Positions 52,798 to 59,102 of a stretch of 64,000 bases of DNA are shown one piece after another (the first letter of the stretch is position 1; the number at the start of each line of letters is the position of its first letter). The stretch is from Candidatus Eiseniibacteriota bacterium (GTDB lineage Bacteria > Eisenbacteria > RBG-16-71-46 > CAVPCR01): NCBI GenBank assembly GCA_963823555.1, contig CAWGMA010000001.1, positions 544,001 to 608,000 of the forward strand, given 5' to 3'. A program made the translations under genes and the position numbers. The notes under the pieces were generated by a model. That model was not told the origin of the DNA and ran no database searches. It was given only the letters and a program-made list of their open reading frames with translations.

Positions 52798-54733
52798 TCA
52801 GGCTTCCTCCTCCGGCTCGTGATCAGGCTCCTCCCACGCGCTTGCATCCGAGGCCGGGTGGAAGAAGTCATGGATCTCCCGGGCCGCGCCGCGTCCGATT
52901 CCGGGCACCTGGGCGAGCTCCTCGACCGATGCCTCCTTCACCGCAGCGAGCGAGCCGAGCGTGGTCAGGAGGGCGCTCCGCCGCCGGGGACCGATTCCGG
53001 GAATGGCCTCGAGCTTGGAGAGCGTCAGACTCCGCCGCTTGAGTTGCCGCTGATACGTGATGGCAAAGCGGTGCGCCTCGTCTCGGATGCGAACCAGAAA
53101 GTGATTCTCGGGTGAATCCTGGCGCAGAACGATCGGTTCATCACGGTCGGCCGTGTAGACGCGTTCCTCCGTTCGGATCGCGGCCGGAGCCCGGTCGCTC
53201 CCGCCGAGCGCCGGGCGCCGCTTTCGCCGGGACTTGGCTAGCCCGATGACATCGATATCGACCACGTTGTGCTCGGCCATCACTTCGCGCACCCGGTCGA
53301 GCTGGCCCTTGCCACCATCGATGATGAGGAGATCGGGTAATGATCCTTCTTTGATCCCCCGCTCGAGGCGACGGGAGAGCACCTCGGCGAGGGCGCCGAA
53401 GTCATCTCCCGGCTGCGCCGATCGCACGCGATAGCGCCGGTAGCGGTCCTTGTCGGCCACACCCCCGACAAAGGTCACGCGCGAACCCACTGTCTCCCGG
53501 CCCCCGAGGTGCGAGATGTCATAACATTCGATGACCTCGGGTGTGCTGTTCAGGGTGAGTTTCTCGCGTAGCGACTCGAGGAGCTCCGCGTGGCGATCGC
53601 GCTCGGCGCGGCTCGTGACCAGCGCCTGGGCCGCGTTCCGGTTCGCGATCTCGACCTGGGCTCGCTTGTCCCCTCGCTTGGGGACCCGGATGCGAACGGC
53701 ATGTCCCGACTTCTCCCCGAGCCACTCGCCGAGCACCGATTCATCCTCGATCTCGACCGGCACCAGGATCTCGGACGGGACCATCTTCTCGCCATCATAG
53801 AACTGCACGAGAAAGCTCGATAGGAGTTCGCCCACCGGCATCAGGGCGCGGAACCGGTGGGCCGTCGAGTGCGCCAGCTTGCCCTCGCGAAAGAAGAGCG
53901 TCTGGATCGCCAACTCACCGCCTTCCCAGTGGTAGCCGAAGACGTCACGGTCGTAGCTTTCTCCGGTCACCTCGGTGTGCTGCCGCTCGACGGTGAGTTC
54001 GATGGCGCCCATGCGATCGCGGAGCTCGGCCGCCTCCTCGAAGCGTCGCGCTGCTGCGGCCTCCTGCATCCGGCGCCGCAGCTCCTCGAGCACCGAGCGG
54101 TTGCGACCGCGCATGAACTGAATGAGCCCCTCGACATAGCTCCGGTAGATGTCTTCGCCCACGATGGTCGACGCAAGGAGCGGAACACATCCGGATGTCG
54201 TAGTAGACGCAAGGACGATTTCGATTGGCTAGAGTGTGATCTGTGCACAACCGGAGCGGGAAGACCCGCTGCAGGGCCCTGATCGTCGCACGCAGCTTGT
54301 CGGCCGAGGAGTAGGGTCCGAAGTAGAGGGCACCGTCGTCCTTCGCCCCCCGCGTCACCAGGGCCCGTGGCCAGCGGTGATCGACGTTGATCTTGAGGAT
54401 GACGTAGGATTTGTCGTCTCGCAGCCGCACGTTGAATCGCGGCTTCGCCTTCTTGATCAGGTTGTTCTCGAGGAGGAGCGCGTCCTTCTCGGTCGTGGTG
54501 ACCAGGTACTCGATATCGACCACGCGGTCGACGAGGAACTCGACCTGATAGCGCCCGTCGCCGGTGGTGCGGAAGTACGAGCGCACGCGGCTATGGAGGT
54601 CCTTGGCCTTGCCGATGTAGAGGACCTCGCCGGTGCTGTCGCGCATGAGGTAGACCCCGGGTGAGCGCGGGGCCTGGTCGAGACGCTCGGCCAGGCGGGG
54701 AGTGATCGGGATCGGGAGGTCGTGTTCCGTCAT
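52798..54733 (-). CDS. uvrC: Excinuclease ABC subunit C; one frameshift near 54165 as assembled
   Basis: GIY-YIG PGVYLM..YIGKAK.L..RV.SYF, N.RLRDDK.Y, then IECYDISH, DLLIIDGGKGQ, RDEAHRFA and HhH motifs in the next frame. Confidence 0.93.
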
Positions 54734-54894
54734 GGCTTCGGCGGTTGCTTCCGCGCGGGTAGCGCCTTAAGATCCTCATCTCATGATGTGCTCGCGTCGC
54801 GCCAGGTCGAACCTGGCCCTCGCTTGAAGCATAGACCACCGGTCGCTCCGGCGTCGCGCTGGAGCACGATCCCCCCGCCGAGACCTCAAGTGCC

Positions 54895-55716
54895 ATGGAA
54901 GTGATGATCGGTTCCACGCGCCTCGACCTCGTCGAGGGCGATCTGACCGCGCTCCCTGCGGATGCCATCATCAACCCCGCGAATGCGGAGCTCCAGCTCG
55001 GCGCGGGGGTCGCCGGCGCGATCCGGCAGCGGGGCGGCCCGGCAATCCAAGCGGAGTGCGCCGCTCTGGCGCCGATCGCCGTGGGGCAGGCGGTCCTGAC
55101 CGGTGGGGGCGCGCTCCCCGCGCGGCACGTGATCCATGCGGTGGGGCCGCGCTGGGGGGAAGGCGACGAGGACGAGAAGCTCGCCCGGGCGACCCGGGCG
55201 AGTCTCACCCTGGCCGAGGAGCGCGGGCTCGGCTGGGTGGCGTTTCCAGCCCTCTCCACCGGTGTGTTCGGATTCCCCATCGACCGGTGTGCCGCGATCA
55301 TGCTGGGAACGGTGATTGCCTTCCTGCTTCCCGGGAGCCACCTCCGGCGCGTGACCTTCAGCCTGTGGGGAGCCGAGGCCTATCAGGTCTTTGCAGCCGA
55401 ACTGGCCCGGCACGACCTGGGCGGCGGAAATCGCCTCCCACCCGGGCCAGAAGCCGCGGAGGCCGGGAGCATCGTTGTCGAGCTGCTTCTCTTCGCCGTA
55501 CTGCGCGATGCCATCGGCACGGACCGCGTGCGCCTCACTCTCCCCGCGCCAGCCACGGCCGGTGATGCCCTGGCCGCCGTCGTGGCGCGTCATCCGGCAG
55601 TGGCGCAGCACCAGCCGAGCCTCCGGCTCGCGGTCAATTGCGAGTACGCGGACCCGGGCCGAGAGCTCGCAACCGGGGATGAAGTGGCGCTCATTCCCCC
55701 TACGTGTGGCGGATGA
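54895..55716 (+). CDS. Macrodomain (MacroD-type) fused to MoaD/ThiS ubiquitin-like sulfur carrier
   Basis: N-terminal GDLT...DAIINPAN..L..GAGVAGAI, HVIHAVGP, FPALSTGVFGFP. C-terminal LLLFA.LRD..G, LAVN.EY, GDEVALIPPTCGG-stop. Confidence 0.9.
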   Translation: MEVMIGSTRLDLVEGDLTALPADAIINPANAELQLGAGVAGAIRQRGGPAIQAECAALAPIAVGQAVLTGGGALPARHVIHAVGPRWGEGDEDEKLARATRASLTLAEERGLGWVAFPALSTGVFGFPIDRCAAIMLGTVIAFLLPGSHLRRVTFSLWGAEAYQVFAAELARHDLGGGNRLPPGPEAAEAGSIVVELLLFAVLRDAIGTDRVRLTLPAPATAGDALAAVVARHPAVAQHQPSLRLAVNCEYADPGRELATGDEVALIPPTCGG

Positions 55717-56144
55717 CGCCGGTCTCGCCGCCGCGTGTCGCGCTGTCCGCGACGACGATCGACGCGGCCCAGGTGGCGGGCCTCGTCGCCGGTAGCGGCG
55801 CCGGGGGCCTGGTCCTCTTCATCGGGACCGTGCGTGACGAGAACCGCGGGCGGGCCGTCATCCGTCTCGTCTACGAGGCCTACGCGCCGATGGCGATCAA
55901 GGTCATCGAGAGGGTCGCAGCCGAAGCCCGCGACCGATTTGCCGTTCTCGATGTCGCCGTACACCATCGCACGGGTGAGCTGGCCCTGGGCGACGTGGCC
56001 GTGGTGGTCGCGGTGGCTGCGGTGCATCGTGCGGAGGCCTTCGTTGCCTGCAAGTATGTGATCGATGAGCTCAAGACGCGGGCGCCGATCTGGAAGAAGG
56101 AGATCTACCGGGACGGTGAATCGTGGTTGAGTCACGGTCCCTAG
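55713..56144 (+). CDS. moaE: Molybdopterin synthase catalytic subunit
   Basis: F.GTVR, L.YEAY.PMA, HR.G.L, HR.EAF..C...IDELK..APIWKKE; ATGA overlap with the fusion gene. Confidence 0.93.
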   Translation: MTPVSPPRVALSATTIDAAQVAGLVAGSGAGGLVLFIGTVRDENRGRAVIRLVYEAYAPMAIKVIERVAAEARDRFAVLDVAVHHRTGELALGDVAVVVAVAAVHRAEAFVACKYVIDELKTRAPIWKKEIYRDGESWLSHGP

Positions 56145-56187
56145 CGCATGGTGGGTGGATGGTCCCGGACGGACGAAGGGGAATCGG

Positions 56188-57003
56188 ATGATGGCGGCAG
56201 ATCATGCTGCGCTCGAGGCTCGACGGCGCGTGGCTACGGCGGCCGCCCTCGAGGCCGGTCGCGCTTTGCGGCAGTACTTCGGCAAGCCTCTCGAATCGCG
56301 CCTCAAGCAGGGTGGGTCCATGGTCTCCGCGGCCGATCACGCCGCGGAGGACATCCTGCGCGAGTGGGTCGCCAGGGAGTTCCCCGGGGATTCGATCCTG
56401 GCCGAGGAAGGCGGGTTCGTGCCGGGAGACCAGACCTGGTGCTGGACGCTGGATGGTCTCGATGGAACGCAGAATTTCCTGGCGGGGATTCCGCTCTTCG
56501 CCGTTGCCTTGGCGGTGCTCATGGAGCGCTCGCCCGCCGTGGCCGTGATCCACGATCCGGTGCGGCAGGTCAGCTACACGGCGCACAGGGGGGGTGGGGC
56601 ATGGTGCGAGGATGATCCCATCAGGGTCAACCCCCGCCCCCTCGATCCATCATCGTTGATTGCCGTGAGGCATCGCTTCCTCCGGCGCGAGGCCGATCGA
56701 ATCTACGATGCCCTGCCGTCGAGGAAGTTCCGCAGTCTGGGTAGCATGTCGATCGAACTCGCCTACACCGCCAGCGGTGCGCTCGCCGGACTGGTGGCCA
56801 ACAGGCCGCACCTGTGGGACATCGCCCCCGGCGTGCTCCTCATCGAGGAAGGAGGAGGCTCGGCCCTGAGTTTCGACGGCAGCACCATCTTCCCTCTTGG
56901 CCACGAGCCTGGCAACGAGCCCGACCGCCGCTACAGGATTGCTGCCGGGAACCCGACGGTCGTCACCGAGCTGGTGGCGCACCTGCGCGACCTGCCCTTG
57001 TAG
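56188..57003 (+). CDS. Inositol monophosphatase family protein
   Basis: AD..AE, ILAEE, WTLDGLDGTQNF, R.LGS, WDIAPG.L...EGGG. Confidence 0.9.
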   Translation: MMAADHAALEARRRVATAAALEAGRALRQYFGKPLESRLKQGGSMVSAADHAAEDILREWVAREFPGDSILAEEGGFVPGDQTWCWTLDGLDGTQNFLAGIPLFAVALAVLMERSPAVAVIHDPVRQVSYTAHRGGGAWCEDDPIRVNPRPLDPSSLIAVRHRFLRREADRIYDALPSRKFRSLGSMSIELAYTASGALAGLVANRPHLWDIAPGVLLIEEGGGSALSFDGSTIFPLGHEPGNEPDRRYRIAAGNPTVVTELVAHLRDLPL

Positions 57004-57066
57004 GTCCGGCAAGCGGTTCCCAGGCCTGCCGGCGTGCCGTTGTCGTCGTCGCGTGGTCGCCAGGAT

Positions 57067-57372
57067 CTAGTAGCTACTTCCGCCGTAACCGCCGCGTCCA
57101 CGGCCGCCGCCACCACCGCCGCCCTCACGCGGTCTCGCCTCGTTGACCGTCAGAGCCCGGCCCTTCATCTCCATGCCGTTCAGCGCCGAGATGGCCGCCT
57201 GGGCCTCTTCGTCCGAGCCCATCTCGACGAAGCCGAATCCCTTGGAACGACCCGTCTCCCGATCCACGATTACCTGTGCCGACTGCACAGCCCCGTGTGC
57301 CGCGAACATCTGCGCGAGATCATCATCGCTGACATTGTATGGCAAGTTGCCGACGTAAACCCTGTTACCCAT
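57067..57372 (-). CDS. RRM (RNP-1) RNA-binding protein, second paralogue
   Basis: VYVGNL, KGFGFVEM, VNEARPR, Gly-rich tail; RBS AGGAG. Confidence 0.95.
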   Translation of the reverse strand: MGNRVYVGNLPYNVSDDDLAQMFAAHGAVQSAQVIVDRETGRSKGFGFVEMGSDEEAQAAISALNGMEMKGRALTVNEARPREGGGGGGGRGRGGYGGSSY

Positions 57373-57519: not shown

Positions 57520-58629
57520 TCAGAATGTGGAGTCTAGAGCCCTTTCCTCGCCTGAAGATTCCGCGTCGCCACTTGGACTTCCCTGCGTGGCGGCGGAATC
57601 CGGGTCCTCTGGATCGCGGTCGCCTTCCGGCGCGGCATCCAGCCCTTCGGGGGCTGAAACCCCGGCTTCGTCCGCGGGGGGAGGCGATGGTTGTGGTTGC
57701 CCATCGATCTCGCCCACCGGGAGAGCCTCCAGAACCATCGTCTGGCCGCTCGTCACCATGCACCATTCGATCTCGGCCGGCTCTTCAAGGATCTCCTCCA
57801 CGCCGAGCGCCATGGTGCATAGATTGCGGATGGCCGGGTCCTTGAGCACGACCGAGTTCCGGCGGTTCTTGGGCACCGGCACGATGCCGCTTGCCGAGAC
57901 CATGATGTCCTTGGTGACGATCCGCTTGTAGCGCAAAGCCATCGTCCGCCGGTCGACATGGTAGATGTCCGGGGTCGCCTGCGCCGCCGAGCCTTGACCC
58001 ATGCCCCAGAAAGCAGTGATGACCAGCCGATCCCGGTCGCCCGTGCCGGGATCCGCGGTGAAGATGGTGCCCGAGGACACCGGGTGCACCATGACTTGAA
58101 TGAGCACCGCAGGGCGCAACCGGGCATGATCGACCCCGGCGCGCTGTGCCGCCGTGATCACCGACGGCTGCCAGATCGAAGCCCACACGTCGCGCACGGC
58201 CTGGAAGAGATCTTTCTCTCCAAGCACATTGAGATGCGGCTCGGCATGTCCGGAGACTGGACTCCGCATGAGATCGTCGCAGGCCAAGGAAAGGCGTACG
58301 ACCACGCGGGGACGCTGGCCCAGCGTGCGGTAGACGGTCGACAGGCTGAACGCTACCTCGGCGGGAATCGCCGCTTCGAGGATGCGGGCATGGATGGTCT
58401 CGGCGGTGGAGAGGACATCGGGACCTTCAGGCAGGGCATGGAAGGCCGTGACGGCGTCCCCGATTCCGGAGTCCTTGAGGAAGGCGTCGTAGGCAAGAGC
58501 CTTGAGGCAGAAGCCCTTCGGTACTGGAACGCCACGGGCGAGAACCTCACCGAGAAGCGCCCCCTTGCCGCCGGCCTGGCTCACCTTGGCACGGTTAATG
58601 TCTTCCAGGCCAACAACATATTCATCCAT
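57520..58629 (-). CDS. Stand-alone PEP/pyruvate-binding (PEP synthase N-terminal ATP-grasp) domain protein, degenerate
   Basis: GGKG..LG, VPVPKGF, VWAS, AVLIQ.MV, FTADP, EIEW; no His-swivel or C-terminal domain; acidic tail. Confidence 0.82.
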   Translation of the reverse strand: MDEYVVGLEDINRAKVSQAGGKGALLGEVLARGVPVPKGFCLKALAYDAFLKDSGIGDAVTAFHALPEGPDVLSTAETIHARILEAAIPAEVAFSLSTVYRTLGQRPRVVVRLSLACDDLMRSPVSGHAEPHLNVLGEKDLFQAVRDVWASIWQPSVITAAQRAGVDHARLRPAVLIQVMVHPVSSGTIFTADPGTGDRDRLVITAFWGMGQGSAAQATPDIYHVDRRTMALRYKRIVTKDIMVSASGIVPVPKNRRNSVVLKDPAIRNLCTMALGVEEILEEPAEIEWCMVTSGQTMVLEALPVGEIDGQPQPSPPPADEAGVSAPEGLDAAPEGDRDPEDPDSAATQGSPSGDAESSGEERALDSTF

Positions 58630-59102
58630 GCAGTCTCGCCCTCCACCAACCCGAGATCGAAGAAGGCTACCATTAAACGAGCACAGCCGGGACCTGTAAA
58701 GGGGAAAACCGGCCTGAGCGCACCGAATCGCCGGTGCATCCACCAATCTGGTATGGGCTTGGGAATGCCGCCGAACCCTGCAGAGGAGCTGGCCGGAACG
58801 TCGGCGGGAGCCTGGCGGCCGGGCGGGAACCCTCGTTCTCGTAGGGTCTCCTTTTCGGACTACCGGGCCTTGTGATAGCGTTCTCCGATGGCAGGTGGCG
58901 GGGCAGGCGCGTCCGACGTCCCTGGCCCTCGGCTTTCCGGACCGATTACCTATCTATAATAACTCCAGTGACTTAAGCCCGAGTGGCAGTTGCCGCGGGC
59001 GGTCCTGGGATACCCTCAGCTCGCGACGGCTCGTCACGGTCATGAGTCCGGCGCGGTCGCCGGCTCCCGGCGGGGCCGGGAGGATGACGGGGAGGTTGCA
59101 TC

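Follow-up and report, generated by a model that had tools for sequence, protein, structure and literature searches.

A macrodomain fused to the sulfur carrier MoaD in a small order of Eisenbacteria, probably as a passenger

In molybdopterin (MPT) synthase, the C-terminal glycine of MoaD is adenylated and thiocarboxylated, and the sulfur is passed to cyclic pyranopterin monophosphate on MoaE (PMC3227635; this and the other articles are cited here for excerpts of their text). Carriers of this kind also stand at the C-terminus of longer proteins; i.e., MoaD is naturally fused behind aldehyde ferredoxin oxidoreductase (AOR) in Azoarcus, and ThiS is fused to sulfite reductase in actinobacteria (PMC1779556). 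A fusion of a ubiquitin-like (Ubl) protein with Cgi121 is described from Thaumarchaeota (PMC2948915). The term "macro" does not occur in the main text of PMC1779556 or of PMC2948915. We analyzed a window of 64,000 nucleotides (nt) from Candidatus Eiseniibacteriota bacterium (GCA_963823555.1, contig CAWGMA010000001.1, positions 544,001 to 608,000), in which one open reading frame (ORF) directly upstream of moaE joins a macrodomain to a MoaD-type carrier. With a probability of roughly 0.68, we interpret it as a passenger fusion, that is, an in-frame join of neighboring macrodomain and moaD genes, in which the two halves work independently and the join is tolerated.

The ORF (54895-55716, plus strand) encodes 273 amino acids consisting of a Macro domain, a Gly/Pro/Ala linker and a ThiS/MoaD domain. 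Pfam placed Macro at residues 26-136 and ThiS at residues 198-273, and the MoaD half scored 44.5 bits against PF02597 (cut-off 22.5). The NCBIfam moaD model TIGR01682 matched residues 195-273 with 57.4 bits, which is below its equivalog cut-off of 66.15; it is still the nearest family, and the pathway context fits. Over all 81 positions, a profile of the MoaD half matched both human MOCS2A (5mpo) and MoaD of E. coli (1fm0). In the AlphaFold model (9-row alignment; mean pLDDT 74, pTM 0.54), residues 176-187 had a pLDDT below 50 and residues 192-267 were confident; Foldseek matches to the model cover the macro half. The protein ends in PPTCGG followed by TGA, which overlaps the ATG of moaE as ATGA (55713-55716), and its Gly-Gly is terminal and free, not internal. 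A preliminary description, made from the sequence alone, had reported this 273-residue fusion and its ending, the ATGA overlap with moaE, the inositol monophosphatase (IMPase)-family gene behind it, and a junction free of plus-frame stops and in-frame starts. All of this was confirmed, the fusion by Pfam and the ORF coordinates; no stop was found in any plus frame at 55352-55563 and no in-frame ATG, GTG or TTG at 55351-55528.

The Macro-MoaD architecture is real, since seven other protein clusters carry both domains and few single edits could split the junction. Of 1906 homologues with an E of 0.001 or better (from 8000 candidates), the best 120 were listed, and eight of these carried both Pfam domains, namely this protein and seven other clusters from three sources, which showed 57-67% identity and all ended in IPPTCGG. 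The fusion is accordingly not a singleton, and the Joint Genome Institute annotation of one relative (P0002) already names both domains. Two of the best 150 among 1.84 billion representatives spanned both domains, and both came from the set already found. The ESM Atlas returned only single-domain Macro clusters (at 0.78), and a scan of genome contigs (44/64 parts) gave no fused locus among the 53 matches listed. The DNA pattern for ALIPPTCGG-stop was found at three loci in metagenome contigs, of which L093 is split and L092 and L094 are too short to tell. The preliminary description had argued that a single indel could hardly be blamed for the fusion. This held: only 7 of 1048 single-base edits at the junction gave a complete macrodomain and a started moaD, and all seven depend on translation starting at a TTG (55391) that lies within the last helix of the macrodomain.

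We then compared the locus across the order, which comprises five genomes: this one (G000, 92.5% complete), G001 from the same genus, G002 from the same family, G003 and G004; the metagenome locus L093 was added. In all five genomes, uvrC faces away from moaD-moaE (tblastn). The locus is fused with an intact macrodomain in G000, whereas in G001, G002 and L093 the macrodomain gene is separate, and its stop codon shares an ATGA with the start of moaD. In G003, the operon has no macrodomain gene at the locus, and one lies elsewhere in the genome. G004 encodes a fused protein of 227 residues (L090:3931-4614), the N-terminal part of which is a macrodomain remnant (hhalign 96.5%, E 8e-10) that no longer matches Pfam Macro. 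This remnant has lost GDxT, NxxN and STG, with 46 of 68 conserved positions changed, compared with a mean of 6.75 in intact fusions. Its proportions of nonsynonymous (pN) and synonymous (pS) differences were 0.43-0.48 and 0.54-0.55, compared with 0.31 and 0.60 for the MoaD of G004, suggesting that the remnant evolves nearly unconstrained by comparison. A near-identical protein (P0139, one residue different, 4 members) occurs in other samples, and a single-sequence fold of the G004 protein had a pLDDT of 41. G004 has two further macrodomain genes elsewhere, one with GGGVDGAIH. In one macrodomain gene of G004 (L156; G004:C188:1073-1513), the ligand loops are altered, with FYASH for VNAAN and GSGHG for GxGV.

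A tree of the neighboring genes (uvrC, moaE, moaD and phosphatase; six rows, none from the seven metagenome fused clusters) gave ((G003,G004),(G002,(G000,(G001,L093)))), with all three inner branches at 100/99 or better, and grouping the split lineages as one clade was rejected (approximately unbiased test, p-AU 0.001). Because G000 nests between the split G002 and the split G001/L093, the state changed at least twice within the order, wherever the tree is rooted: G000 may have become fused independently, or else the genes were parted separately in two lineages. The macrodomain showed 68-78% identity to 12 standalone macrodomains and 59-71% to the seven other intact fused ones; P0010 (206 residues with a linker-like tail) and other apparently standalone hits may be cut-off fusions. 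These seven clusters form a branch of their own (96/95) in domain trees from which the G004 remnant was left out as a long branch. The linkers of the nine fused proteins range from 8 to 31 residues and share no common sequence; the junction of P0002/P0004 is just 8 residues long.

The Macro-MoaD fusion is confined to this one small order and is labile. The fusion profile was matched at E 1e-50 or better in 21 of the phylum's 206 genomes, in two of them (G000 and G004) across both domains; 12 candidates were scored per genome, so that other decayed fusions could be missed. Outside the order, moaD or moaE was found near none of 73 macrodomain loci, i.e., 0/47 from other genomes (flanks up to 6 kb) and 0/26 from the class (1.5 kb flanks). 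Conversely, no macrodomain gene lay within about 3.3 kb of moaD at 32 further loci from the phylum (L157-L188; one of these negative rows, L186, comes from the unpublished genome G053). In 12 of these 32 loci, moaD and moaE are themselves fused, with an internal Gly-Gly, and they are separate in the rest. That is, the operon fuses in both directions.

Next, we considered what each half may do. The fused Gly-Gly domain is most likely the MPT-synthase MoaD of the cell, because it is the sole moaE-linked copy in a genome that also encodes an E1, MoaC, MoeA and molybdenum enzymes. Three ThiS-family matches were found in G000: the fusion, a thiS that precedes thiG, and one that follows a BNR propeller gene. 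The search for a separate moaD and for moeB thus gave no other moaE-linked MoaD and one MoeB-type E1, a ThiF + rhodanese gene. MoaE has a single match, with K121, K128 and E130 invariant in 9/9 aligned sequences, and the genome also has molybdopterin-oxidoreductase and xanthine-oxidase-type genes. Neither AOR nor Prok-JAB (PF14464) had a match in this 92.5% complete genome. The C-terminal PPTCGG is invariant in 9/9 fused proteins apart from T/V. As a separate observation, the BNR/propeller gene (L003:255-1755, G000:C2) is directly followed by a small MoaD-family protein ending in CALSGG, away from molybdenum cofactor (Moco) and thiamine genes.

The macrodomain is the only Macro match in G000. 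It keeps D16, N27, N30, G36, G38, V39, S121, G123 and F125, and GDxT, NxxN, the glycine-rich loop 1 and the STGxF/YG loop 2 of the Macro fold are all present. The preliminary description had called it an intact-looking MacroD-type domain; its motifs GDLT, NPAN, GAGVAGAI and STGVFGFP are indeed there, but an alignment to MacroD2 and DR_2288 puts Ala40 and Arg44 at the positions of the catalytic Asp and His of MacroD2/YmdB-type enzymes. The 11 NCBIfam equivalogs listed for ADP-ribose-related functions all scored below cut-off, and the best single-domain match in the PDB was TTHA0132 (2dx6). By these residues the macrodomain is of the Af1521/TTHA0132 type and not a canonical MacroD (MacroD1/2, YmdB, OiMacroD). 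Af1521 and TTHA0132 have Ala at the catalytic Asp position, and Af1521 is active nonetheless (PMC5413906). Because the pocket is kept and Af1521 is active with the same Ala, binding of ADP-ribose is predicted to be likely, and hydrolysis of ADP-ribose adducts is possible. Compared with G001, the macrodomain had a pN of 0.16 and a pS of 0.56, which points to purifying selection like that on its neighbors. All eight intact fusions retain the pocket, the exceptions being A40E (one protein) and G126R (two proteins). We looked for relaxed selection on the intact fused macrodomains and found none (6.75 deviations versus 6.33 in standalone ones, p 0.91).

We propose that, in this order, the macrodomain gene came to occupy the first position of the moaD-moaE operon. 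Small indels could join or part the two frames, because these abut in the ATGA overlap. The join would cost little and be tolerated, since the chemistry of MoaD sits at its C-terminus and needs only a free Gly-Gly; the N-terminus of MoaD would point away from the contact faces of MoeB and MoaE. The MoaD half would be adenylated and thiocarboxylated at this Gly-Gly by the single MoeB-rhodanese enzyme of G000, with the sulfur then going to MoaE, and the macro half would bind, and perhaps hydrolyze, ADP-ribose adducts, as predicted for its unfused relatives. Where the macro half is the sole macrodomain, as in G000, it would be kept under selection; where other copies exist, as in G004, it would decay to a leader whose remaining contribution is the start codon. 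Because it carries the MoaD start codon, the decayed half would not simply be dropped. Carriers with N-terminal tags offer precedents, as His6-MoaD was thiocarboxylated and active (PMC3227635), and Flag-SAMP1 was functional and complemented its deletion (PMC4443979).

Several points weigh against the passenger fusion. These tags are small peptides, whereas the domain here is 19 kDa. The macrodomain gene adjoins moaD in 4/5 genomes of the order and in L093. Fusion arose or persisted on more than one occasion, and the seven divergent clusters retain it with an intact pocket, which goes beyond a recent accident. One common origin for every fusion was not rejected in the macro, MoaD and joined trees (p-AU 0.12, 0.14 and 0.09). 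The C-terminal half of the G004 remnant is still 35-42% identical, although its ligand loops are gone. Finally, the MoaD end is Cys-Gly-Gly (55705-55707 here) in every macro-linked copy seen, fused or split (L088, L089, L090, L092-L094), and Ser/Gln/Gly-Gly-Gly in the macro-less G003 and in 31/31 readable other moaD genes of the phylum. This Cys, which would put a thiol beside the thiocarboxylate, is restricted to macro-linked MoaD; its carriers, however, are kin and not independent cases.

The preliminary description had suggested that the fusion couples ADP-ribose/nicotinamide adenine dinucleotide (NAD) signaling to MPT sulfur transfer. Here, the macrodomain would be a ligand-sensing module of MPT synthase, and the loading of MoaD or the docking of MoaE would change in response to ADP-ribose or to an ADP-ribosylated partner, in cis when fused and in trans when split, perhaps through the lineage-specific Cys. 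The adjacency of the genes, the repeated fusion, the pocket of the intact fusions and the Cys-Gly-Gly end would all fit, and sirtuin, a source of O-acetyl-ADP-ribose, is encoded in 3/5 genomes (G000 included); sirtuins, however, are common (10/14 control genomes). The nearest relatives are split, the pocket is lost in the fused G004, the locus of G003 has no macrodomain gene, the linkers are unrelated, and the state changed at least twice in one small order outside which the pairing was unseen. The coupling was thus not supported, and we consider it quite unlikely. In its boldest form, the macrodomain, whether fused or free, would be a dedicated ADP-ribose-sensing subunit of MPT synthase, which controls the loading or docking of Cys-Gly-Gly MoaD and ties Moco synthesis to NAD/ADP-ribose status, or, at the extreme, the fused form would be a Ubl modifier that carries its own ADP-ribose reader onto targets; this bold form we regard as unlikely. 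The same description had raised an ADP-ribose eraser attached to targets by Ubl conjugation, in which the E1 would conjugate the whole fusion through its Gly-Gly to target lysines, as with SAMP1 or TtuB, and so tether a reader or eraser of ADP-ribose to the targets. Both a free Gly-Gly and an E1-rhodanese enzyme are present, and incidental conjugation is chemically possible, since MoaE of Haloferax receives SAMP1 by conjugation and loses it again through JAMM1 (PMC4443979). Delivery of this kind would be impossible for the split relatives, G004 would deliver a dead domain, and Moco synthesis fully explains the Gly-Gly; with no Prok-JAB deconjugase matched in G000, this proposal was not supported either and is very improbable. 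Three of five weak Prok-JAB matches in relatives were to what we take to be RadC-like sequence.

Two readings concern the junction itself. Free MoaD could arise by cleavage of the linker, which is predicted to be disordered, or from an internal start at the ATC of 55471, giving the same two proteins as in the split relatives. This ATC lies 8 nt behind a GGAGG at 55458, and the preliminary description had suggested that the pair could be a relic of a separate moaD start. Both are present, and in G001 and L093, the separate moaD has its second in-frame ATG at the position aligned with the ATC; but the split G002 and the fused G004 also have ATC at this place, and a GGAGG is expected by chance in about 9% of 50-nt stretches here. 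ATC is a poor start codon, no cleavage motif is conserved, and a junction as short as that of P0002/P0004 argues against a precursor, which makes this reading improbable. It is highly improbable that the join in G000 is an assembly error and that the true state is split, as in the closest relatives. In favor of such an error, the neighboring uvrC has a 1-nt insertion near 54170 compared with G001 and G002 (DNA alignment), its split being an assembly error or a real pseudogene. The frame also switches in 14 of 147 ORF pairs between G000 and 315 kb of G001, a count in which some rows are antisense duplicates and either genome may be at fault, and the exact protein is a one-member cluster. A split by a single edit, however, would need the TTG start described above, the linker differs from the G001 junction and exceeds it in length, and the architecture recurs in seven other clusters from several sources and in G004.

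The features of the locus are listed in Table 1.

Table 1. Features at the fusion locus, in window positions
Feature	Coordinates	Strand	Evidence
Macrodomain, residues 1-175, Af1521/TTHA0132 type	54895..55419	+	PF01661 E 2e-36, PDB match 2dx6, residue table, pN/pS
Gly/Pro/Ala-rich linker, residues 176-191, predicted disordered, unconserved	55420..55467	+	pLDDT, fused-protein alignment
MoaD beta-grasp sulfur carrier, free C-terminal PPTCGG	55468..55716	+	PF02597 E 2e-11, TIGR01682, PDB profile matches
moaE, molybdopterin synthase large subunit	55713..56144	+	PF02391 E 2e-37, PDB matches 2wp4, 1fm0
Inositol-monophosphatase-family gene (ATG 56188)	56188..57003	+	PF00459 E 2e-46, tblastn on loci
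uvrC, divergent neighbor, 2 ORFs	52798..54733	-	Pfam GIY-YIG + UvrC domains, DNA alignment with G001 + G002, tblastn

The phosphatase starts 43 nt past the moaE stop, with no overlap in this genome. It lies downstream of moaE in G000, G001, G003, G004 and L092-L094. We rejected a role for it in the fusion: because it also follows moaE in the macro-less G003, it is tied to the operon and not to the fusion. No sigma-70 promoter or terminator match was found within 54650-57200. In G003 (L091:6864-7415) and G002 (L089), the gene directly after moaE encodes about 180 mostly hydrophobic residues that matched nothing in Pfam; this gene is not at this position in G000, G001 and G004. Farther downstream in the window, a gene at 57520-58746 (minus strand), adjoining an RNA recognition motif gene (57067-57372), encodes the N-terminal nucleotide-binding domain of pyruvate phosphate dikinase/phosphoenolpyruvate synthase alone, with a long acidic tail.

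The locus represents a gene fusion in flux: within five genomes it is split, fused, fused with a dead first domain, or without the domain. This suggests that MoaD can bear a whole folded domain at its N-terminus, and warns that a Macro-Ubl fusion is not to be taken as a link between pathways. The natural split, fused and decayed versions form a ready control set. If the coupling were true, it would be, to our knowledge, the first known tie between ADP-ribose signaling and sulfur transfer to Moco. The preliminary description did not know the architecture from described systems; likewise, we found no description of a Macro-MoaD fusion among the open-licence papers searched.

Compared with known systems, the fusion shares with the MoaD-MoaE MPT synthases of E. 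coli (1fm0) and human (MOCS2A/B, 5mpo) the beta-grasp fold, the free Gly-Gly, the coupling to moaE and a MoeB-type E1 elsewhere in the genome; it differs in the 191-residue N-terminal macrodomain and linker and in ending with PPTCGG instead of PPVSGG/PPVTGG. Af1521 and Thermus TTHA0132 have Ala at the Asp position as here, and the LGAGVAGAI loop of TTHA0132 is identical; these are single-domain proteins, whereas the macrodomain here is fused and may be active. The E1 and Gly-Gly carrier of SAMP/TtuB conjugation are present, but a JAMM/JAB deconjugase was not found in G000. In the MoaX and MoaD-MoaE fusions (M. tuberculosis, D. radiodurans and the engineered SAMP1-MoaE), MoaD is joined to an operon neighbor, as here; their internal Gly-Gly, however, is freed by JAMM proteases, whereas in the present protein it is terminal, and G000 gave no match to a JAB gene. 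AOR-MoaD and sulfite reductase-ThiS, like this protein, join a whole domain to a C-terminal Gly-Gly carrier, and because the carrier is C-terminal, no cleavage is needed to free the Gly-Gly. The partners in these fusions and in that with Cgi121 share a cofactor, sulfur or tRNA pathway with the carrier, in which the macrodomain differs; we know of no link between macrodomains and Moco. The fusion likely functions as a usual MoaD that bears a passenger at its N-terminus, and its place is among these X-MoaD fusions, not among the MoaX-like ones.

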